From positions 1,984,001 to 2,048,000 of the forward strand of contig NW_026889810.1 of assembly GCF_033153115.1 (NCBI RefSeq): a DNA stretch of 64,000 bases, written 5' to 3'. Positions 4,235-40,272 of the stretch are shown here, in pieces. The stretch is from Saccostrea echinata (taxonomy: Eukaryota). How positions within the stretch are numbered: the first letter of the stretch is position 1; every line of letters begins with the position of its first letter. Under the pieces are notes generated by a model. It saw only the letters and a program-made list of their open reading frames with translations. It was not told the origin of the DNA and searched no databases. A program made the position numbers and the translations under genes.

Positions 4235-4735
4235 ATGAGTCTCCAGGAGATACAGGGTGATTTATTAAACATTCCTGTAGAAGCTATCGTACATCAATGT
4301 AACTGTTTAACAGTCAGAGCTCATGGATTGAGTCAAAGTATAGCAGATAAATATCCTCAAGTGAATTTGTATGCCACCCGCAGACCTTTAGGGTCTAGAA
4401 ATTTAGCCTTAGAAGAGGACAGGGATAAGCCAGGAACCATTAGGGTGTTTTCCTCACAAGCACCTGTGGTCATTTGTTTATTAGCTCAATGGGATTATGG
4501 CAGAGCAAGTCACAGACCTAAAAGAATCTCCACTTATCAGGACACCCCACAAAATAGAGAGCAATGGTTTCAAGCCTGTTTACAAGAATTGGGAAATTTA
4601 CCTTATAAAACTTTTGCTTTTCCTTACAAGATTGGATGTGGCTTAGCTGGAGGAAATTGGACTCATTATAGACATTATATTGAACAATTTGTACACACTT
4701 ATGAGAAACATGTGTACATTCTTCATAAACATTAA
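4235..4735 (+). CDS. Stand-alone Macro domain protein (TARG1/DarG/Poa1p-like ADP-ribose hydrolase family)
   Basis: IQGDLL...IVHQCNC....HGLS..IA.KYP...PGTI...FPYKIGCGLAGGNW macrodomain motifs. Own TATA (about 4192) and TCATTT initiator. Confidence 0.88.
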   Translation: MSLQEIQGDLLNIPVEAIVHQCNCLTVRAHGLSQSIADKYPQVNLYATRRPLGSRNLALEEDRDKPGTIRVFSSQAPVVICLLAQWDYGRASHRPKRISTYQDTPQNREQWFQACLQELGNLPYKTFAFPYKIGCGLAGGNWTHYRHYIEQFVHTYEKHVYILHKH

Positions 4736-6423: not shown

Positions 6424-8074
6424 ATGGATCTCTGGAATGTTCATGAGATAGATGACATAACTTTGAGTCAGGCTGCAGAATTCCTTGAAGCCGAATCAAA
6501 TTTTGAAAACTTGTCCTTAAGTGATTTCCTTGACATTGATTTCGGAAATTTTGATATATTGTCAATGGAAAATATTGATATTACAAGTTCTGATGTGAAA
6601 ATGAAAACGGAGAATTCTGATGTGAACTCAGCTGGGTCGCGCTTCGGAGATCTAAAAGAGGAAGAGGATATAAATCGTCTAATTAAGGATACTGAGAGTA
6701 AACATACAAGAAAAAACTCCAATTGGAGTAAGAAAACATTTGATGAGTGGCGAGAGTACAGAACAAGCCAGACAAACGTCCCTATACCTGAGATCGAAAA
6801 TTTTACAGAAAACGATGTAAATGTATGGTTGAGCAGATTTGTACTTGAAGCCAGACGCAAGGATGGAGCACCGTACCCTCCTAACACGCTTTATCAACTT
6901 TGTGCCGGACTGATGAGAGTACAGAAAGAAAGCGGAACTTTTATGAATTTTCTAGATGAAAAAAATCCTGTTTTTTTTCCGTTTCGACGAAGTTTGAGTG
7001 CAAGAATGGCTGAGTTAACAAAGCAGGGTGTTGGAACAGTAACACATCAAGCGGACCCCATATCTCGTGACAATGAGGAGGAACTCTGGTCAAAGGGAGT
7101 GTTTGGATCAGGAACAGCAAAATCACTTTTATATACAGTTTTCTTCTACAATTGCAAACTGTTTGGGATGAGGGGGACAGACGAACATAGAAACTTAGAG
7201 CTGAATCAATTTCAACTGGACAAAGAGCCAATGAGTCTTACATTCTATGGGAGAGCTAACAAAACCTACAAGGGTAAGTTACACTTTCTAGTTTTATATA
7301 TTTATATTTTCATTCTTTAGAGTAAATAAATTGCGACAATATTTAAGCGTATCTTAGGCCTACTTTTCAATTATTGTTGCTAAATATCTGAAGATTTTTC
7401 TCAACTGTCTGTTTGTTTTATCTTACAAAAGGGGGGTGGGGGGTGTCTAAACACATTTGTGACTAAGAAATGAAAAGTTTCATAGGAACGAAAAAAATGT
7501 AAGAAATTTAATTGGTATTTTAATTTTAGGTGGGCTGAATCAGAGGCACATTTCTCCAAAAACTATTAAGCATGTGTTTTCTGACCCCAAGCTTTTCCTT
7601 ATTTACGAGGAATACATTCAACTTGTTCGAATGATTTCTACTGATGAGAATGGTTCTGAACCATTTTATAGGCGTCCTCTGGAAAACAAGAATAACTTAA
7701 AAACATTTAGTAAGCAGTGTCTTGGTGTCAATAAGTTATCAAAGCTTATGAAAAGTATTTGTGAGGAAGGGGGACTCAAAGGCGCATTCAGTAACCATTC
7801 AGGGAAAAGAACCTGTGCAACGCAACTTTATCAAGCTGGAATTCAAGAGCAGGAAATAATGGGCCGTACTGGGCATCGTAGTGTACAAAGCGTAAGAAAA
7901 TACAAGAGGCCTTCAGGAGAAATGTTGGAAGAAATTTCGAATGTATTGGAACCACCTGTGAAACGCGAGAAAGTTGAAATGGAGGTGTCCGAATCCACTG
8001 AGAGGATGTGTTCTAAATCTGGCTGCACTGGTGTTACTGCGTATAACAATTGTGTGTTTGAGTTCAAATTTTGA
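6424..8074 (+). CDS. Crypton tyrosine recombinase (DUF3504/ZMYM-KCTD1-QRICH1-related); two exons 6424-7273 + 7530-8074, 464 aa, intact
   Basis: The GT..AG intron 7274-7529 joins the exons in frame (ANKTYKG|GLNQR). Motifs EARRKDG..YPP.TL, FGMRG.DEHR (R), NKTYKGG (K), NHSGKRT (H/R), TGHRS (H), VRKY (Y). Confidence 0.88.
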
Positions 8075-10351: not shown

Positions 10352-10885
10352 TTATTTTTTTTGGTTTAACAATTGTTCCAAATGTTGAATTCTGCGTTGA
10401 AATCTTATTCGATCGGCTACTAGAGCCATCCATTCACTTTTCCGATCTTCGGGTGGTAAATAATGAATTTCATTCAAGTCTGTATTAAAAGTCACACATT
10501 TCTTAGTCTCTCTGAAATTTCCAGATATTTCATCCCGTATTGAATGCATATTTTCTCCATCGATTCTATTTCCTGGTAGAGTAAAATCACTTTCCTTGCT
10601 TGGGGATGGCATAAAAAAGTGTAAGGCTTTCCGAGATAGTGGGTTCTGGGGCAGAGTTTCTTTCATGCGTTGACATAGAAAATGCAGTGTAGCTAGTCTC
10701 CCCAGGTTGGGAGGATGTAACAGGGCCAGGCATTGTAACCATAAGTCCTGAATGGTTTCTATGATGGTAGTGGCTCTCTGAAAGACTTGTTCTGCCTCGG
10801 GAGGAAGAGGTTGTTCGTGTTGTTCTATCCATTGCATTAACAAATCATAGCCTTCTAAAATCAAAGAGTGGTATTGCTTCGACAT
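10352..10885 (-). CDS. PPP1R15/DP71L/ICP34.5-like PP1-recruiting protein; in A a fusion of two overlapping frames caused by a 20-nt deletion
   Basis: C-terminus KKCVTF-NTDLNEIHYL-PPEDRKSEWMALVADRIRFQRRIQHLEQLL: an RVxF motif plus the W..DRxRFxRRI signature. Confidence 0.85.
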   Translation of the reverse strand: MSKQYHSLILEGYDLLMQWIEQHEQPLPPEAEQVFQRATTIIETIQDLWLQCLALLHPPNLGRLATLHFLCQRMKETLPQNPLSRKALHFFMPSPSKESDFTLPGNRIDGENMHSIRDEISGNFRETKKCVTFNTDLNEIHYLPPEDRKSEWMALVADRIRFQRRIQHLEQLLNQKK

Positions 10886-18660: not shown

Positions 18661-18885
18661 AGTAGTAGATTACTCCAGGATAGACCGGTCTATCCTGGAG
18701 TATAGGGGCCTTTATAGACGGTAAAAAAATGCAAAAAATACGAAAAATGTAAAATGCGCTGGACCGGTCTATCCAGGCGTATAGGGGCCTTTATAGACGG
18801 TAAAAAAAAAAGTCAAAATAAGAAAGTCTATACAGGATACCGTATCAAAAGTCCCAAAATGCGCTGGTCGGGTCAACTAAGTGCA
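18661..18885 (+). repeat. Left TIR of Maverick B, containing a perfect 32-bp palindrome at 18671-18702
   Basis: Reverse complement of 40049-40272 with few mismatches. Looser similarity extends to about 18998/39899. Confidence 0.95.
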
Positions 18886-18939
18886 CCTTCCCAAGATCCT
18901 GGCTAGCCGGTTCAACTACCCTTTTTAAAAAATACACAA

Positions 18940-19384
18940 TCAAAAAAATTTCAAACCTTTTATTATTGATCCAATACAATACAATATGAAAAGAAAAAGT
19001 GTCAATTCTTTTTTTCTGTACTTTTCATTCATTTCTTTTGTCACTCTTTCTGTTTTTTTTTCCTTTTTAATTGTTCTAAGTTTATCCTTACGAATCTCAT
19101 CCATCACTTCTTTAAACACACCAATTTCTTTTGTTATGATTTCTCTAAACTCACAGTGATCCTTCTGAAGTTTTACCATTATATCAGTTGATTTCTCCTG
19201 ATCCTGAATCATTTTTCTTATTATACTGGCTATTTCCTTCTGGTTCTCTTTCAGAATTTGAATTATATCACATATATCCTCTAGGATTTTTTTTTATCCC
19301 TTTTCTTTCATGTAGTTCAATACCAGCCATTACTGTTGCCAGCTCAAACATATCATTCAGAGTCCTGGAATTTTCTTCTTCCAT
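18940..19384 (-). pseudogene. Coiled-coil protein gene at the left end, frameshifted in an A-run (about 19290)
   Basis: TATA (about 19455) and TCAGTC initiator, then MEEENSRTLNDMFELA... continuing in a shifted frame as ILEDICDIIQILKENQKEIASIIRKMIQDQEK... Confidence 0.55.
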
Positions 19385-19754
19385 CTTAAGGTTTGTTTTA
19401 AAATCCCTGACTAAAATATAAGACTGATCCTATATACTCTCAGATCTGGTTTATATACCTTTTTAATCCATTCTATTTTTAGTCTCTACTATTTTTTTAG
19501 TTTAATCTATTTTTAATCTCCACTATTTTTTATAAGTCTAAAACTATTTTTAGTTCTTTTTTAACTCTAATTATAACACCACGAGATCCTATTCTTAAAA
19601 CACCTGTGCAGTAGTGGCGTGTGCAAAAAAAATTCCTCCTACTTAAAATCTTTGCACCTATCCAAATCACAGCGACCTATGCATTGTGACGTCATATATC
19701 GTATAAAAACCGCCTTCTTTTGACTTTCAGCTCATTCTGTTGTTAAAAATAAAC

Positions 19755-31545: not shown

Positions 31546-32672
31546 AAGGGTGAGAACAGTGGTTTTTACATGACATTACCCAGTGATAGCTCCATGCAAT
31601 CTTTTCCGAGGAATACGACCGCTCAATTTAAAACTTTATTACCACAATCTGTGGATTTAACGGATGGTCAATGGGAAGTAGCATTAACCGAAATGATTTA
31701 TCCTTGTAGTATAGAAAATATAAGTCAGGATGAATCTTATATCGAAGTGTGTATAGTGGAAAAAGTTCCACCTTTTTTTAAAGGCGTTTCACCATCTGAG
31801 AAACTGGATCTCGAGGACCCTGATAAGTACCAGTGGGGACGGTTTCAATTATTGAAAAGTACTCCCATCACTTTTCAACAAACCAAGCTTTTAGTAGATT
31901 GGAGTAAAGCTTATTGGTTAATGGGTACTTATGATCCTAGAGAGAAAATGAATTTGTATCAACTTCGATTTAGACCGGGACCTTATCCTAACCCTACAGC
32001 TATCCTGGCAGAAATCAATGAAGGTTTAGTACAGACCATGAAAAAAATCTGGAAAAAGTATCACAAATGGAACGAGAAAAAAACCCCACAGATCAAGGAA
32101 GTGATGACGATGATGATGTGTATGGAAATTTAAAACAAAGCTTAAAGACAGTGATACAAGACTTGAAAGAAGAAGAAGAAAAACCCTCAAAACTTGAGAT
32201 GAAATTTAATTATCGGGAGGATTTCAATCGAGTGAATTATGTCACTCATTTACGTCCAATTCCCATCTTTGTACATCTTCCCTTAAGTCTGGCTTATAAA
32301 TTAGGATTTCATGATTCTAAATTAGTCCCGGAAAATTGGACAGAAGACACGACCAAATGGATTAACATCAGTTATCTGGCTCCAGACACTGTAGATTTAT
32401 ATCGAAATTTAAAATCCATGTATGTGTATTGTGATCTGATTCAACCCCAGACTGTAGGATCGAATGCCTTGAAATTATTAAGAGTGTTCCCTTGTCAATT
32501 TGAACATAATGACAATCAATGTAAATGGGAACCCATCCGTGCGGAATATCTCCCTTTGAGTAAAAAACATTTTGATACCATTGAGATACACATCATGACA
32601 CCTTTAGGAAAACCCATGCCCTTTTTAAGTGGAAAAACTTTAGTCAAACTTCATTTTAGAAAAGTGTACTGA
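31546..32672 (+). pseudogene. Minor capsid protein (penton) of B; ATG changed to AAG and a frameshift at about 32085
   Basis: Ends are homologous to 173-1156. Confidence 0.88.
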
Positions 32673-32817
32673 GATGAGTGTACAGCTTTTTTGTTACATC
32701 CTATTGGGAGTCATGATTTGTCTGGTATGCTGTCTATATTTTATTCAGCCCTAAAAAGGGGTATAAAAGGAAGTCCTCAGAGTGCACAAAAGTCAGTTTT
32801 TAAGAACAGTTATCACC

Positions 32818-33360
32818 ATGCAGTATCATCCAGGAATATTAAGACAGAGAGGACATGGTTGGACTTATCATAAAGGTTTATTGCGACAAAAAGGACACGG
32901 GCTTGGTCTTTTAGCTCCGGTGTTAAAATTAGCAGCTCCAGTAGTCAGTAATCTATTAGGTGGAATATTAGGAGGGGGTCAACAGCAACCACTCCCACCC
33001 CCACCACCACCAGCTTATTATTATCCACCCCCCAAAAACTATCAAAGAGGGGAAGGATTTTTTACGGATTTACTGAAAACGGGAGCTAAACATGCCTTGA
33101 CCGCTGCTGCTAGAACGGGGTAAGATGTGTTAGAAAATAAGAGATCTTTAAAAGATGCTATCAAAACTCACGGAATACAAGCCCTAAAAAATACGTCGGG
33201 AATGGTAAAACAAAAAATGAATCTAGGAGATAGTAAGAAAAGAAAAAGAAAACAGACAGAAAGAGTTCTGTTGGCTAGAGGAGGTCCTAAGAGAAAAAGA
33301 AAAAATCAAGAAAACAATATTCCCAAGAAGAAAACACGGTCTTTAGATGTCTTTGACTGA
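32818..33360 (+). pseudogene. QxGxG core protein of B with a nonsense codon at 33121-33123
   Basis: Homologous to 1306-2080, with a single copy of the unit duplicated in A. Confidence 0.8.
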
Positions 33361-33432
33361 GAGACTATAAATAGAGGAGTGTGAGGGAGAAGAGTTTCAT
33401 TTGTGAAAAATCAATCTTAGTAGACAGACATC

Positions 33433-34835
33433 ATGTTACAGCCCGATTCCTGTGCTTGTGGGATGGACAATTTACAATTGTTCCAAGTCCCTCCCACTAA
33501 TATTGCTTTAGAAGACTCCAAATGGGAAGAATATTACCCTATTTCTAGTACTTTAGATTCAGAGACAGCTCCGATCGAATTTGAAATTAAAGGACAAGGA
33601 GATCAATATCTAGATTAATCTCAAACTTATCTTCAAATGGTATGTCAATTTGTCCAAAATGATGGAAGTGATCTGGCTGGAGTTCCTGCTAAAACAGCCC
33701 CAGTGAATAATATCTTACATTCCTTGTTTACGGAAATCGATGTCAATGTCAATGGAAAAATAATCACTCCAGGGACGGATACTTATCCTTACAAAGCTTA
33801 TCTGGAGAAATTACTGTCTTATAAACCCAGAACTTTAGCCACACAAATGAAAGCCTGTAGTCTATGGGAAAAAGATACGGCAGGACACATGGACGAAAGG
33901 GGGCTAGCAGCTCTGGGAGTGGCTGCTAATCAGGCCTTTGCTGTAGCTGCTGGTACTTGTACCATTAACAAACCCATCATTCCAGCGTACCCAGCCAATT
34001 CTAAAAACGAAGGATACAGAAAACGTCATGAAGCCATAGATGCTAGTAAGAAAATTACTTTGTTGGTTCGTTTACATCTGGATTTGTTTCAACAAGATCG
34101 ATTTCTACCGAATGGAGTCGACGTCCGTTTGAGATTTAATCGAGCTAGACCTGATTTCTACATGATGACGGCTCAAGCCAATACGGGAAAAGTCAAAATA
34201 TTAAGTATGGTCTTGTGGGTGAGAAAAGTGAAACCTTCCCCTACTTTAATGAATCACATCAATCAAACTTTGAATCTCACAGAGCCAAATATCTATTAAG
34301 AAGAGTCGAAGTCAAAAGTTTTACCATACCTACAGGAACTCAATCTAAGGTTACGGATCATCTGTTTCAAGGCCAGATGCCAAAAAGGCTCATTTTAGGG
34401 TTTGTGGAGAATGCGGCTTTTAATGGAGATAAAACTAAAAATCCCTTTAATTTTCAAAATTTTGGGATTAAAAAATTAGATGTTAGTATCAATGGAGAGA
34501 CCATGATGACTCGTTGTTTCGAACCTAATTTTAATGAAGATTTATATTTGAGATCTTATCTGAGTATATATCAAGCTTTGGGAAAATTAGGAGAAGATTG
34601 GGCTCCGGACATTACCTTAGAAGAGTATAAAAACGGATACACTTTATGGGGCTGGGATTTCACGAAAGATCAAGAAGCCCAATCGGATAAATTTCATCTC
34701 ATAGAAACAGGAAATTTAAGAGTAGAAGTTCAATTTACTAACAATACGGCTACCACTTTAAATTGTGTGGTGTATGCAGAATTTGATAACCTCTTAGAAA
34801 TCAACAAACAGAGAGAAGTGAGCATTGATTATTAA
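33433..34835 (+). pseudogene. Major capsid protein of B; stop at 33616-33618 and a frameshift at about 34275
   Basis: Colinear and highly similar to the intact MCP at 2152-3573. Confidence 0.92.
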
Positions 34836-35338
34836 TGGATACAGGACAGTTGAGAGAAGTGTTATCTAGAGAAATAAAGAGTTCGTTTGGTGGAGTGTAT
34901 CCTTTAGATTTATTACCAGATCAATTAAAATTTGGAGAAAAAGCCATTGTAGTCAATACAGATCCTCAAGATCAACCTGGAGAACATTGGGTGTGTTTAT
35001 ATGTAAGCAGTCCAGTGGTAGAATATTTTGATTCTTATGGATTTCCTCCCTTACAAAAAGAAATTCAAGACTTTATCCAGCGTCATGGTCATCAATGGAT
35101 TTATAATCCGTATCGATATCAAGATTGGAATACGGATGTGTGTGGACAAAATTGTGTGTATTATTTACATCAAAGACATATGAAGAAAATTAAAGCAGAT
35201 GAATGGTTATTTCCCTTTGACCATCATACAGCTTTACAAAGAGATCATTATGTAGCTCAATGGTTTAAAGACAGTTATCATAAAAGACCAACAGGTCATG
35301 GACAAACTTGTCAATGTTTCTATCAAAATGTATTGTAA
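34835..35338 (+). CDS. Adenain-like protease of B
   Basis: GEHW, YFDSYG, YQ..., VCGQ. Near-identical to 3573-4076. Confidence 0.92.
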   Translation: MDTGQLREVLSREIKSSFGGVYPLDLLPDQLKFGEKAIVVNTDPQDQPGEHWVCLYVSSPVVEYFDSYGFPPLQKEIQDFIQRHGHQWIYNPYRYQDWNTDVCGQNCVYYLHQRHMKKIKADEWLFPFDHHTALQRDHYVAQWFKDSYHKRPTGHGQTCQCFYQNVL

Positions 35339-35438
35339 AAAAAATTGTTATTGTTGATTGTTGTTTGTTTGTTCTCAAAATAAAAAAAAAAGAAAAAAAT
35401 GCTACCTAGATGTTTTTTTAAGAATCTGAACTGATGCT

Positions 35439-35440
<2 letters not shown>

Positions 35441-35506
<66 letters not shown>
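35441..35506. repeat. (TA)n microsatellite
   Basis: Uninterrupted TA run. Confidence 0.95.
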
Positions 35507-35511
<5 letters not shown>

Positions 35512-35584
35512 TAACAAAGAGTTAAAAATAAACTTACAAAAAAGGTATAAATACAAAGGGATAAGGTGTATTAAAATCAGTTTG

Positions 35585-36205
35585 ATGAGGATGAGCTTGA
35601 GTAAAAAGTCAAAAGATATGGAGGAAGAGAAAATACCATTATTAGAAAAAAGAATGATCATGCCTATGGAGGTAAATGATTCCAGTCCTCCCAAAAGAAG
35701 AATAGAACTAAAAACAATGGATGAAGAACCCTGTAATGTTTACTTGCCAGCAAATGAGAAGATCCATGACCCAAAGGACCCATACAGAAGTTACAGAATA
35801 GCCACTAACTGGACATTTGTTTTAAATCAAGTGAACGAAGAAATAGAAGATATAGACATTTTTCTGAACCTTGAAGATGATGAAATTCAGTACCTGATCC
35901 TAAAAAAGGAAATTCATCCCTGCACAGGAAAAGTGCATCAAATCAGGGGTTTCATTCAAATGAAAGAACCTGTAGGAGGACTGGATGTGCATAAACTTAA
36001 TCTTACAGCAAGATTTGATATGTCCCACAGTACACCAGAATTAGAAAGAATGTTTTACAGGCAAGGTGGTAACTATCAAGAATATGGAATTCTGAAACCT
36101 GAGGAGAGAAACAAAGAATTACTGGAGAAATGGGAAACAGCAAAATTGTGCCTGGAGAAATTTCGTAGAAAAGAAAAAGAGAAATGTTGTTTTTGTTCAG
36201 CTTAA
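35585..36205 (+). CDS. CRESS-DNA-virus Rep N-terminal (HUH endonuclease) domain derivative; no helicase, degenerate catalytic motifs
   Basis: NWTFVLNQ (motif I), YLILKKEIHPCTGKVHQIRGFIQMK (motif II region), ARFD...ERMFYRQGGNYQEYG (motif III region). Own TATA (about 35546), TCAGTT initiator and downstream AATAAA. Confidence 0.72.
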   Translation: MRMSLSKKSKDMEEEKIPLLEKRMIMPMEVNDSSPPKRRIELKTMDEEPCNVYLPANEKIHDPKDPYRSYRIATNWTFVLNQVNEEIEDIDIFLNLEDDEIQYLILKKEIHPCTGKVHQIRGFIQMKEPVGGLDVHKLNLTARFDMSHSTPELERMFYRQGGNYQEYGILKPEERNKELLEKWETAKLCLEKFRRKEKEKCCFCSA

Positions 36206-36518
36206 ATATATGAAAAGTGACATTTAAAAAATTGTGTGTGTGTTAATAAAATGAAAGAGTTCTATGTTAATAAAATGTTGATTTGTAAAATAAAATAAAA
36301 TTAAAATTAAAAAAAAAAATATATATTTATTTCTTTTTTAAAAAAATTAATGTTAATAAAAAAATTTAATTTTAATTTTTAAAACAACAGTGACCTCTGG
36401 GTGTTTTTATGAGACTTTTCTATTATAACCAACTGTGTATCAAAAGGTATCTATTCGAATCATTGAAGTGGCCCTTAAAAGGGCCGATGTTGATTTTTTT
36501 ATTTAAGGGTTTACTCCC

Positions 36519-37160
36519 TTACTCTGGCTGTAGCCCAAATCCTCGCCAAGGGAATGGGTTGTAGCGGCATAATGGACAAGGTAAACGTCGATCTATGATC
36601 CTTGCTGAACATAGATAGCAAGCTGGTCTTTGCCTGCATTGGTCGGATATATAATTATTCTGTTCTTCATCGCACAAACACAGGCTGCAGAATATGGTAG
36701 ATACAGGGACTTGTAAACCCCAGCTGGGGATACATCCCTGAAACCTAGTCTGGGTCTGCTGGCTCTGGCGATTGTAAACCTCATCCACCGTTGATGGTAT
36801 CCCAGGAGATGGAGGTGGTGATTCTGGAGAATCAGGGAGAGAAAGATTTCTTCCCTCTTCCTGGGGTCTAGGGTGGTAAATAGGCCTTGGTGCTGGTGGC
36901 GGTGGTGAGGGTGGCCTTGCTGGTGGTGAGCGTGGCCTTGCTGGTGGTGAGGGTGATCTCCTCCTCCTCCTCCTGGGGTGAAGTCTATCATAAGGTGTCG
37001 CTGATATTCTTCTGGCATGGGAATTTTCACTTATCTGCACCCGCATCATCGGACAACGCAACAATTCTTGGCCGTCTGTAATTCTACGTACAGCATAGTA
37101 ACACACTAACTCAATCCCTGGGATGAGGTATAACTCTTCATGAAAATTTTCGTCAGCCAT
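36519..37160 (-). CDS. Pro/Arg-rich RING-like protein of B (third Cys replaced by Ser)
   Basis: Shares PIYHPRP.EEGRN..LPD.PESPPP, FQGCIP.WG and C.LCLCD...CRQRPAC.LC...CPLCRY with 8679-9389. Confidence 0.72.
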   Translation of the reverse strand: MADENFHEELYLIPGIELVCYYAVRRITDGQELLRCPMMRVQISENSHARRISATPYDRLHPRRRRRRSPSPPARPRSPPARPPSPPPPAPRPIYHPRPQEEGRNLSLPDSPESPPPSPGIPSTVDEVYNRQSQQTQTRFQGCIPSWGLQVPVSTIFCSLCLCDEEQNNYISDQCRQRPACYLCSARIIDRRLPCPLCRYNPFPWRGFGLQPE

Positions 37161-37169
37161 AGAAAGGGT

Positions 37170-37860
37170 CGCTGTGAAATCAGCTAGTAACGAATGACAG
37201 TTAACAGCTGACGAGCGTTGGTATTTATACACACAGCGCGACCCGAAAAGATAGCCCCAAAAGCCCGGATGAAACAGAGCTCAAAAAATCATGGAGAATT
37301 CAAAATTGTGTTATTCTGTGTTTGTGAATATCTCTATTGGATTAAATAACATATTATGGAATGATATATAGTTTCAAACCTTCTAGTGAAAGAATGAAGG
37401 TAAGTTTTGAGGATGATTTCACAGTATTATTCATACATGACATTCCTCCGTTGTTTAGAACAGGCTCATTCATGCCGAAGTGAAGGTCTAACCTTGAGTG
37501 ACCTGAATACCTAAAATAAGTCGTTTTAAACTTTTAAAAGTGTGACACCAAGAAAACTTAATGTCTATCATAAGATCGAACCTAAGGAAAAGTGTTGAGA
37601 GGGTTTTTAAATCAAAAGAATCCTTACAAGTGTAGAAATAAACTTAGCGTTGGTTTAAACATAAACACAAGGGAGGTCAAAGGTCAGCCATTTTCAGAAA
37701 ATCACTGTATAGACTTGTATAGAGCTTATAAGATTCTTTTCAATCCTGATCTTTGATGATGAAAATTTTGAAATGAATACAATCGGAAACTTATAAAAAT
37801 CATTTGTATCTACTTTATTTGCAATGGGAATGTCTAGATTTTTATAAAAAGACTAAAACA
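37170..37860 (-). promoter_or_regulatory. Conserved non-coding upstream region of the RING gene in B (DR1 at 37674-37686)
   Basis: Colinear with 9410-10110. Confidence 0.6.
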
Positions 37861-37949
37861 AAAAAAACATCTCAGCGTCTAAACAAGGACACAAGATGGC
37901 GTCCTATTTGTATAGAAATAATAACAAAAAAAAGAACTGATTGTTTTTT

Positions 37950-38471
37950 TCATTCTTTTTTTTTTTTTTTTAATTTTTTTAGTTTTAACAATTGTTCCAA
38001 GTGTTGAATTCTCTTTTGTAATCTTATTCTATCCGCTACTAGAGCCATCCATTCACTTTTCCGATCTTCGGGGGGTAAATCATGAATTTCATTCAAGTCT
38101 GTATTAAAGGTCACACATTTTTTAGTAGGTCTGATATTTCCAGAGATTTCATTCCGTATTGAATACAGATTTTCTCCATCGTTTCTATTTCTTTCCAAAG
38201 TAGAATCACTTTGCTCCCTTGGGGATGACATAGAAAACTGTAGGGTTTTTGTAAATATTGCATCATGTTCATCCCGTACATTTTTTCGGGTAAAGTCTTT
38301 TTCATTCGTTGACATATGAAATGAATAATCGCTAATCTCCCCACTGTCGTACGATGGGATAAAGCCAGGCATTGTAACCACAAGTCCTGAGTGGTTTCTA
38401 TGATGTTGTCTGCTTTCTGAAACACTTGTTCCGCTTCGGGGGGTAATGGTTGTTCCTGTTGTTCTAGACAT
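37950..38471 (-). CDS. PPP1R15/DP71L-like PP1-recruiting protein (overprinted frame Y), 173 aa
   Basis: Ser/Thr-rich N-terminus, C-terminal KKCVTF...DRKSEWMALVADRIRLQKRI. ATG position conserved with 10832 in A. Confidence 0.75.
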   Translation of the reverse strand: MSRTTGTTITPRSGTSVSESRQHHRNHSGLVVTMPGFIPSYDSGEISDYSFHMSTNEKDFTRKNVRDEHDAIFTKTLQFSMSSPREQSDSTLERNRNDGENLYSIRNEISGNIRPTKKCVTFNTDLNEIHDLPPEDRKSEWMALVADRIRLQKRIQHLEQLLKLKKLKKKKKE

Positions 38472-38524
38472 TGCATTAAAGTATCATAACTTTCCAACAC
38501 TAAAGTGTGATAGTGTCTCAACAT
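38111..38524 (-). CDS. Predicted all-helical 137-aa protein (frame X) overlapping the PP1-regulator ORF
   Basis: Conserved along its whole length with element A once the 20-nt deletion in A is corrected. Confidence 0.7.
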   Translation of the reverse strand: MLRHYHTLVLESYDTLMQCLEQQEQPLPPEAEQVFQKADNIIETTQDLWLQCLALSHRTTVGRLAIIHFICQRMKKTLPEKMYGMNMMQYLQKPYSFLCHPQGSKVILLWKEIETMEKICIQYGMKSLEISDLLKNV

Positions 38525-38966
38525 GATATAAATGATTTTTAAAAAAAAGAAATGTTTTTATGACCTTATTTATACCTTTTGGTTTTCTATTTATAGAAAT
38601 AAAACCAATCAAGGTAAAAATAGGCTTAAGTTAAATTTTTTGCACACGGTACTACTACAGAGGTGTGTTTTAATTGAATTGAATTGGTGCCAAGATTAGG
38701 TACATGACCCCTCTCTGCAGGTGTTTTAAGAATCAGATCTCGTGCTTAATATATATAATTATATAATTATAGTAACAAAAAGGTAAAAATAGTTTTTCAA
38801 AGTTGAATAGGTGCCAAAATTTCACCTGTGCAGGTGTTTTAAGAATGGGATCTAGTGCTATTATAATTATAGTAACAAAGAGCTAAAAATAGTTTTTCAT
38901 AAGGTATATAAACTCAGAGTTAAGTCAGTTATAGCATCAGTTTTGACACATGTAGAGAGAATAGAG

Positions 38967-39518
38967 ATGGCAGAAGCAATGATGAATCTTAATAATCTTA
39001 CAGGTCAGAATTATATTCCACCTCAGAGTACAGGACTAGGATATGCCTTACCCACGGCACCTGATACACAAGATCCCATCGGATTGGATTTGGGACTTTA
39101 TAATATGCCAGAACCCATGACCAAAGAAGATATGAGCATCTTAACCACCACTCTGGATGGAATTATTAAAATGCTGACGGATTTAAAAGAATACAACACC
39201 AGTGAATTTTGTTTGATAAGGGGGAAATTATCCAGATTAGAAGTTAAAGTGACTAATATCCAGGAGAAAATGAATGGTAATTTTATCAGAAAAAACAGAG
39301 TAGCAGCAGTAGCAATAGGAGCAGCACCACAGGAAAAAAGACAAAAGAAACAGATCCATGTTACATTTGTAATGAGTTTGGGACATTGGGCTCCAGACTG
39401 TCCCAGAAAAAAACAGGATTTGTGTTACAAATGTGGAAGAATGGGACATTGGGTTAATGAATGCCCAGAAGATGATCATCAATTTGTGAAAGAAGTACAA
39501 AATTTAGAGAAAAATTAA
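38967..39518 (+). pseudogene. Coiled-coil plus CCHC zinc-knuckle gene of B; local frameshifts scramble the first knuckle
   Basis: TQDP.GLDLGLYN.PE.MTKED shared with A. CYKCGRMGHWVNEC present; DPCYICNE lies in an alternative frame. Confidence 0.75.
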
Positions 39519-40048
39519 GAGAAGAAAAAACATCAGGAACATCAAATTCCTACTAAAGGCAGTAACAAAAGAAAACTTGAGAATACCAATGTAAAGGAGA
39601 AACTAAAATTGAAACTCTAGAAAAATAATTGACAGTTTTGTTGTGAATAATGGATGTGAAACAGTAAGTTTTCATGTTTTTAGTGAACCTTGTGATATTC
39701 CTGTTAGGACTGTTTCTCTGATGTCTTTTTTTCTTGTTTTTGTGTGATAATGACGTCATAATGGACATACTTGAATCGCTGCCAAGACTGTGTACGTCCT
39801 GCCTATTGGTGACTAACCCAAAAAAATTCCTTTTTGTACAGTGATAAAAAATTTGTGATTTTCCTGTTGTAATAGGACTGTTCTCTGATCTTTTTTTTTT
39901 CTTTTCATATTGTATTGTAATGTATTGTATTGGATTGGATTGGATCAATAATAAAGGTTTTGTTGAAATTGAAAAAAAAATCTTTTTTTTTTTGATTTTT
40001 TTTTTTTTTTTTTTTTGTATTTTTTTTTTTAAAAAGGGAGAAAAAAAA

Positions 40049-40272
40049 TGCACTTAATTGACCCGTCCAGCGCATTTTGGGACTTTTGATACGGTATCCT
40101 GTATAGACTTTCTTATTTTGACTTTTTTTTTACCGTCTATAACGGCCCCTATACGCCTGGATAGACCGGTCCAGCGCATTTTACATTTTTCGTATTTTTT
40201 CCATTTTTTTACCGTCTATAACGGCCCCTATACTCCAGGATAGACCCGTCTATCCTGGAGTAATCTACTACT
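40049..40272 (-). repeat. Right TIR of Maverick B
   Basis: Inverted copy of 18661-18885, followed by the TSD TGCCTC. Confidence 0.95.

Follow-up and report, generated by a model that had tools for sequence, protein, structure and literature searches.

A CRESS-type Rep endonuclease domain, apparently disarmed, as a cargo gene of Maverick elements in Saccostrea echinata

Introduction

The closest described systems are the apvReps of avipoxviruses, which are captured CRESS Reps (Kinsella and van der Hoek 2023, PMC10193959). Of these, apvRep-1, -3 and -4 are expressed endonuclease-only proteins in which the HUH/HUQ motif and catalytic Tyr are inactivated; there are several copies per genome, and purifying selection acts on them, at 0.23 for apvRep-1. 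Proposed roles are the control of replication and a dominant-negative defence. The same study describes HHV-6 U94, a Rep likewise captured and exapted by a dsDNA virus, whose endonuclease motifs are inactivated. CRESS-type Rep-like nickases are described in Gulliviroviridae virophages (bioRxiv 10.64898/2026.10.13.758929), and CressRep genes in adomaviruses and parvoviruses (PMC11071296). The Gulliviroviridae and adomavirus Reps are found in small dsDNA viruses, including Maverick relatives, and are listed in these sources as replicases or auxiliary Reps; among the CressRep labels (at least 22) listed in the PMC11071296 supplement, none is from an adintovirus. For a functional Rep, that of PCV2, the structural sections of PMC7826260 give Glu48, His57 and Gln59 as the metal ligands, motif I and the bridging motif as the source of the DNA contacts, and Y96F as the non-cleaving form used for co-crystals on uncleaved ssDNA.

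Here a Rep-like gene, REP1, is described from a 64,000-nucleotide stretch of the Saccostrea echinata genome (the window; assembly GCF_033153115.1, contig NW_026889810.1, positions 1,984,001 to 2,048,000), together with a tandem paralogue, REP2, found elsewhere in the genome.

Results

The carrier element and the REP1 gene

REP1 is carried by Maverick B (Table 1), in which the hallmarks of such elements are present: pPolB, rve integrase, A32-type packaging ATPase, TIRs (97% identical) and a perfect TSD. The capsid and polymerase regions are each broken up into several ORFs, which marks the element as a decaying insertion. The capsid and protease labels, the latter including the adenain-like assignment of the ORF upstream of REP1, are presumptive, and were made partly from weak matches and partly from the usual Maverick gene order. 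The left TIR contains a perfect 32-bp palindrome (18671-18702). The CRESS nonanucleotide has no match in the Maverick TIRs, and 8 matches in the window against 13 expected. A second PP1c-binding-like ORF is located at 10352-10885 on the minus strand (E 3e-5, below the Pfam cut-off), and in a different frame an ORF of some 137 aa overlaps both it and its counterpart in Table 1. Element A, the second Maverick in the window, contains DUF3504/QRICH1 and tyrosine-recombinase pieces (6424-8074), which we take to be Crypton-like. The closest named relatives of its macrodomain gene (Macro) are from oyster, and an oyster adintovirus carries a related 'Macroid' (PMC11071296 supplement).

Table 1. Features of the window, numbered from its first nucleotide.
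Feature	Position	Strand	Basis or remark
REP1 (Rep-like ORF)	35585..36205	+	intact, 206 aa
HUH/CRESS-Rep endonuclease fold, residues 71-173	35795..36103	+	predicted structure, Z 14.6 to PCV2 Rep'; profile search
Degenerate motif I, Thr position = Val	35810..35830	+	joint alignment
E109 at conserved metal-ligand Glu	35909..35911	+	joint alignment; 63/63 copies
Degenerate motif II, one-residue insertion, Gln position = Arg	35936..35950	+	joint alignment
Segment aligned to ssDNA bridging motif, residues 140-149	36002..36031	+	first half varies among copies
Degenerate motif III: Phe157 at catalytic Tyr, Tyr158 beside it, Gln160 at Lys	36053..36064	+	joint alignment
C-terminal helix, predicted	36113..36193	+	structure model
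TATA element, type common to other cargo genes	35544..35554	+	conserved among copies
TCAGT initiator-like element	35577..35581	+	31 nt after TATA
First AATAAA after REP1 stop	36245..36250	+	uninformative, 85% A+T context
Maverick B	18661..40272	.	225-bp TIRs, 6-bp TSD TGCCTC; core genes partly broken
Protein-primed-type PolB, main ORF	21068..23788	+	DNA_pol_B_2, E 1.5e-59
rve integrase with chromodomain	28601..29686	+	Pfam
Adenain-like protease (presumed), upstream neighbour of REP1	34835..35338	+	weak Peptidase_C5 match on element-A copy
RING-like ORF, downstream neighbour of REP1	36519..37160	-	below Pfam cut-off
ORF with PP1c-binding-like region	37950..38471	-	E 7.3e-5, below Pfam cut-off
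Macrodomain gene of element A (second Maverick)	4235..4735	+	after element A protease

The initial annotation had described the ORF as intact and equipped with its own TATA, initiator and poly(A) signal. The frame is indeed intact, and the start context of Met12 (35618) appears better than that of the first Met. The promoter part of the claim is borne out: 60 of 63 REP1 copies have a TATA and, 29-32 nt beyond it, an initiator-like element. TATA elements of this type also stand before other cargo genes (7 matches against 1.4 expected), and REP1 is presumably transcribed from the conserved pair. The poly(A) part is not, since the 200 nt 3' of the stop codon are 85% A+T and an AATAAA occurs within 120 nt of the stop in just 18 of 63 copies. 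At several loci (L016, L018 and L020-L023) an acidic/hydrophobic repeat occurs one to three times in the REP1 N-terminus.

Homology to CRESS-type Rep and predicted fold

Full-length REP1 yields nothing significant against Pfam and PDB sequences. Its core (residues 64-183) matches Pfam Viral_Rep with E 1.9e-4 and 22 bits, short of the 26-bit cut-off; 16 of 18 family members match Viral_Rep below or near the cut-off, one REP2 copy reaching 26 bits. In the Viral_Rep check proposed in the initial annotation the REP1 core itself stays under the cut-off, and it has no relevant match in NCBIfam or PHROGs. A profile of the 18 family sequences, searched against 1.84 billion proteins, gave 46 matches (3 family proteins and 43 others; best E 1.5e-10). 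Among the 45 of these that were scanned, 42 match Viral_Rep and 17 also match an SF3-type helicase family, and the best PDB sequence match of the profile is FBNYV Rep (E 0.008). In the reverse direction, a full CRESS-type Rep searched against the genome recovered the REP1 ORF with E 7.7e-7, all 132 of its genome matches being confined to its N-terminal endonuclease part.

The AlphaFold model of REP1 was built from 60 alignment rows, CRESS Reps among them, which makes its fold match partly circular; it matches duck circovirus and PCV2 Rep with E about 1e-5 and superposes on PCV2 Rep' with Z 14.6 (rmsd 2.2, 100 aligned). The REP2 model (mean pLDDT 66) was built from 20 family rows only, without CRESS rows, and again ranks PCV2 Rep first (E 6e-5; Z 11.5, rmsd 2.6, 97 aligned). 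Both models are thus HUH-type. Sequence identity of REP1 to the solved circovirus/nanovirus-type Rep structures is 16-25%. In the ESM Atlas, Viral_Rep clusters are found at 0.92-0.93 with recognition below threshold, which is a lead only, and homodimer prediction scored 0.00 in two runs in which the alignment went unused, so that it speaks neither for nor against a dimer. The origin-binding domains of papillomavirus E1 and polyomavirus T, like REP as modelled, have a non-catalytic HUH-type fold, but are more distant in structure at Z 7-9 (E1 9.3, SV40 T 7.4-8.8), whereas the REP sequence points to CRESS Reps; these domains are essential and helicase-fused, unlike REP, which is stand-alone and missing from close relatives. 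Taken together, profile searches in both directions and the structure models show REP1 to be homologous to the CRESS-type Rep endonuclease, with a predicted HUH-type fold, as the initial annotation had proposed from motif spacing.

The ORF stops 33 residues past the endonuclease domain and contains no helicase, also as first described, and none of 104 candidates in the genome gives a CRESS-type helicase match. The predicted C-terminal helix bears a loose resemblance to 3 of 41 Reps, by a pattern picked after inspection, and as a weak lead may possibly be a remnant of the first helix of the oligomerisation domain.

These comparisons make it likely that the gene was captured once from a CRESS-type virus, as first suggested for a transfer from an ssDNA to a dsDNA virus. 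An ssDNA virus would be the donor, but the direct source is not pinned by the tree, in which the CRESS backbone is without resolution and the CRESS-type profile relatives are unnamed; because CRESS-type Reps are also carried by Gulliviroviridae, adomaviruses and parvoviruses, a dsDNA intermediate is possible. No intact CRESS EVE that could be a local donor was found among the scored genome candidates.

Replacement of the catalytic residues

The motifs were compared in a joint alignment of the REP1 family with 42 CRESS-type Reps. In motif I, which reads FVLNQ in place of FTLNN as already noted, the Thr of 40/42 Reps is replaced by V79. The conserved Glu (41/42) is retained as E109. Motif II contains a one-residue insertion that aligns to a gap in all 42 Reps; in that register His is retained at 118, while the Gln of 41/42 Reps corresponds to R121, leaving the HUH/HUQ ligand set incomplete. 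In motif III the catalytic Tyr (41/42) corresponds to F157 and the Lys (39/42) to Q160, so that YxxK is lost.

These states are nearly fixed among the intact REP1 copies (F157 62/63, Y158 63/63, Q160 63/63, R121 62/63, H118 61/63, E109 63/63), and the replacement of Tyr and Lys by Phe and Gln read from the single copy thus holds for the family. In REP2, Phe occupies the catalytic Tyr position in 31 of 32 copies, Gln is present as in REP1, the Tyr158 equivalent is invariant (32/32), and motif II has two adjacent His. No Tyr is found at position 157 in any of 142 tblastn alignments, a set that includes broken copies and some overlapping loci. Nicking activity has, by these replacements, presumably been lost.

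The paralogue pair and its distribution

In the genome search, 150 matches were scored among 231 candidates. In the 70 loci studied, REP1 is intact in 63 ORFs, and its 157-aa tandem paralogue REP2 in 32; because loci were selected by design, these and the following locus counts are not frequencies. Five arrangements follow the protease gene: an ORF starting with MGNTSS, then REP2, REP1 and Macro; REP1 alone, as in the window's own subfamily; REP1 and Macro; Macro alone; and neither. The protease tree was built on 69 loci, with 12 overlapping loci left out. Of the 69, 48 have a Rep-like gene and 21 do not, with seven changes of state on the tree, three of them forced by strong branches. The protease clade to which the window belongs comprises 23 loci, 14 with the gene; among the other nine, six have the RING gene next and three lack downstream Maverick cargo. 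Elements with 96-98% identical proteases are found without a Rep-like gene, as is a young expanded subfamily; in a 14-copy subfamily of equal protease score, 5/5 sampled members carry Macro only.

REP1 had been placed in the slot where element A carries Macro. The position after the protease is the same, but replacement of Macro by REP1 is rejected, since most carriers hold both genes and the commonest arrangement (30 of 69 loci) has both paralogues together with Macro. Patchy presence and joint occurrence with Macro indicate that the Rep-like gene is an accessory and not a stand-in for Macro.

Outside the genome, homologues of the family are few and consist of ENA proteins only; scans of IMG/VR (95 pattern matches) and of JGI metagenomes (273) gave none that was confirmed. 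The REP family forms a single group (support 98/95), in which the ENA proteins are placed in both paralogue clades, and a clade of genome copies excluding them is rejected (p-AU 6e-7), so that the duplication and the residue replacements are older than the split from those elements. The ENA orthologues of both paralogues have open frames and the same replaced residues.

Several further arrangements were observed. An MGNTSS-starting ORF is located just upstream of REP2 (L042:2157-2492); we take this start to be myristoylation-like. In two ENA proteins (P0053 and P0005) a similar start is fused in frame with REP2, hinting at a membrane-anchored form. At L066:3979-4602 (minus strand) the reading frame of the REP2 3' part continues into unrelated sequence that is OTU-type-domain-like by eye. 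Two loci (L027, L029 and L071, C12; L028 and L030, C3) have the cargo cassette duplicated in inverted, head-to-head orientation, spanning about 5 kb. At L016, L018, L033 and L085, which appear to be a rearranged or deleted element type, REP1 adjoins the ATPase gene in opposite orientation, with Macro also present in three of the four. Two further Rep-like proteins among the profile matches, P0032 and P0012, are also short and endonuclease-only, and their motifs are degenerate; P0032 (104 aa, 7 members, JGI/ENA) is sister to the REP family (99/96) on a long branch.

Selection and conservation

The initial annotation had asked for orthologues and dN/dS, against the case of a one-off neutral insertion; orthologues are conserved, and the coding sequences of both paralogues are under purifying selection. 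Maximum-likelihood omega, under a model without recombination among copies, is 0.455 for REP1 (bootstrap 0.28-0.73; likelihood gain 8.3 over the fixed-parameter model; every third copy, 21/63) and 0.37 for REP2 (0.20-0.85; 16/32 copies). Protease and Macro, at 0.16 each, are under stronger selection than REP1. Pairwise NG86 values are 0.48-0.66 for the core of REP1 and 0.17-0.35 for protease. Between REP1 and REP2, dN is about 0.31 and dS 0.7-1.0. REP1 variants shared among copies have a ratio of 0.46 (binomial p 6e-4, Fisher p 0.049), while single-copy variants (18 synonymous, 68 nonsynonymous) have a neutral ratio of 0.94, as expected of variants that arose after insertion.

Along the protein, 26 of 33 residues in 147-179 are without a shared variant, and this block is conserved across REP1, REP2 and the ENA proteins; gene conversion may add to its conservation, because the paralogues are also alike there at synonymous sites. 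In the variable segment 132-146, omega is 1.48, with a bootstrap interval of 0.49-50 that does not differ from 1, and the clustering of variation there has p 0.079 after allowing for window choice, so that positive selection on this segment is unsupported. A contrast between 'structural' and 'variable' segments was set aside, its boundaries having been drawn after the alignment was viewed.

Base-reading positions vary among REP1 copies (Arg or Asp at 143, at least five residues at 141), and the basic DNA-contact positions are mostly replaced. By net charge, a crude proxy for DNA binding, the REP1 domain is at -4 or below in 62 of 63 copies, compared with -3 to +8 in 43 CRESS-type rows; REP2 is merely mildly acidic, and its ENA orthologues are at +1 and +2.

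Discussion

Relation to known Reps

REP shares with circovirus/nanovirus-type Reps (PCV2, MDCV, FBNYV; PF02407) the fold, the motif spacing and the conserved Glu, and differs from them in the replaced Tyr, Lys and Gln, the motif II insertion, the absence of an SF3 helicase, the acidic surface, and an oligomerisation domain of which at most a remnant is left; by these sequence features it falls outside the functional CRESS Reps. Nor is it a Replitron transposase, whose HUQ and GYxxK motifs are intact (PMC10288648) and are not so in REP. HHV-6 U94, as described in PMC10193959, differs from REP in its parvovirus origin and retained helicase. The strongest likeness is to the apvReps: REP is also endonuclease-only, with inactivated catalytic motifs, in a dsDNA element, in several copies and under purifying selection. 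The carrier there is a cytoplasmic poxvirus, whereas REP resides in Mavericks, which are integrated and have promoters of Pol II type; apvReps are near-universal in avipoxviruses, whereas REP is patchy and occurs as a tandem paralogue pair; and expression was shown for apvReps, whereas that of REP is predicted from its promoter. REP may accordingly be viewed by analogy as a functional counterpart of apvRep, not an orthologue. A disarmed Rep has probably not been reported from Mavericks before: the literature searched has none among their cargo genes, though one could be present in subscription journals, Repbase annotations or supplements.

Possible functions

The reading we tentatively prefer, to which we give slightly less than an even chance, is that REP is an exapted, non-catalytic, protein-binding accessory gene directed against host defences, and not a DNA-origin binder. 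A Maverick lineage would have captured a CRESS-Rep endonuclease domain, which was to become helicase-less, once from a CRESS-type virus; the gene would then have been duplicated into the tandem pair REP1 and REP2, its nicking residues replaced, and the gene kept by purifying selection as a dispensable accessory. Its partner would be a protein of the host or of a virus, bound through the conserved surface of residues 147-179, to which the one-time catalytic helix, the last strand and the linker contribute, and REP would work within a host-interaction cassette with the macrodomain, RING-like and PP1c-binding-like genes. This reading is favoured by the conservation of 147-179, the dispensability of the gene and the nature of its neighbours, whose anti-defence roles we presume from general family functions and sub-threshold Pfam matches.

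The leading alternative, itself unlikely, is that REP is a non-cleaving ssDNA trap: when CRESS viruses co-infect, it would occupy their origin stem-loop as a dominant negative, or mask viral DNA from host sensors. The Tyr-to-Phe replacement is the state in which PCV2 Rep was crystallised on uncleaved ssDNA (Y96F, PMC7826260), the face of the former active site hardly varies at E109, H118 and R121, and the specificity segment differs between subfamilies, with an omega above 1 that is, however, statistically no different from 1. The acidity of the domain, the loss of most basic DNA contacts and the absence of both a complete oligomerisation domain and a helicase argue against such a trap, as does the lack of CRESS-type helicase matches among the genome candidates. 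Circovirus Rep blocks cGAS through dsDNA binding, but in that study (PMC12201654) the effect required ATPase-domain residues that are absent in REP. The dominant-negative idea, raised in the initial annotation, has no positive support here and is less new than it seemed, having already been proposed for apvReps (PMC10193959). Its fullest version, in which Mavericks carry a natural CRESS Rep substrate trap with a diversifying specificity segment and, in some lineages, a membrane-anchored paralogue, blocking co-infecting ssDNA viruses, we consider distinctly unlikely.

It is quite improbable that REP is instead a nearly neutral passenger, carried along as the cassette spreads and constrained only weakly, by folding. 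The dispensability of the gene, an omega roughly threefold higher than for protease and Macro, the very few homologues beyond the genome and the unproductive IMG/VR and JGI scans fit such a passenger, whereas the REP1 omega interval excludes 1, in the ENA orthologues of both paralogues the frames have stayed open and the residue replacements are retained, the paralogues have diverged with dN well below dS, and the promoter is kept in nearly all copies.

Reuse as an origin/hairpin-binding protein, as first proposed, and more specifically as an origin- or TIR-binding regulator of Maverick replication like the polyoma/papillomavirus origin-binding domains, is very improbable: the fold family is the same and the TIR includes a palindrome, but Mavericks with nearly identical proteases and a young expanded subfamily do without the gene, the DNA-reading residues vary, the domain is acidic and unfused to a helicase, and the TIRs are without the nonanucleotide. 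Least probable of all, with only a small chance conferred by the invariant Tyr158, is a nuclease still active through a rearranged site of Tyr158 and the motif II His, for which E109, H118 and the two adjacent His of REP2 might speak, but in which Tyr158 aligns ungapped to a Cys position in a fixed-length helix, and other residues have taken the place of Lys and of the second metal ligand.

Significance

The REP family, preferably read as a protein-binding accessory, appears to be an independent repeat of the avipoxvirus pattern, namely capture of a CRESS Rep, loss of the helicase, loss of catalysis, duplication and retention under selection, and this convergence of Mavericks and avipoxviruses suggests that the Rep endonuclease fold by itself does something useful that is not enzymatic. 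Such a role could be tested with small soluble proteins, given two paralogues and many natural elements that either carry or lack the gene. The capture itself implies that a CRESS-type virus and Mavericks shared cells in the host lineage, and if the substrate-trap reading were true, REP would be a heritable, transposon-borne antiviral gene for its animal host.
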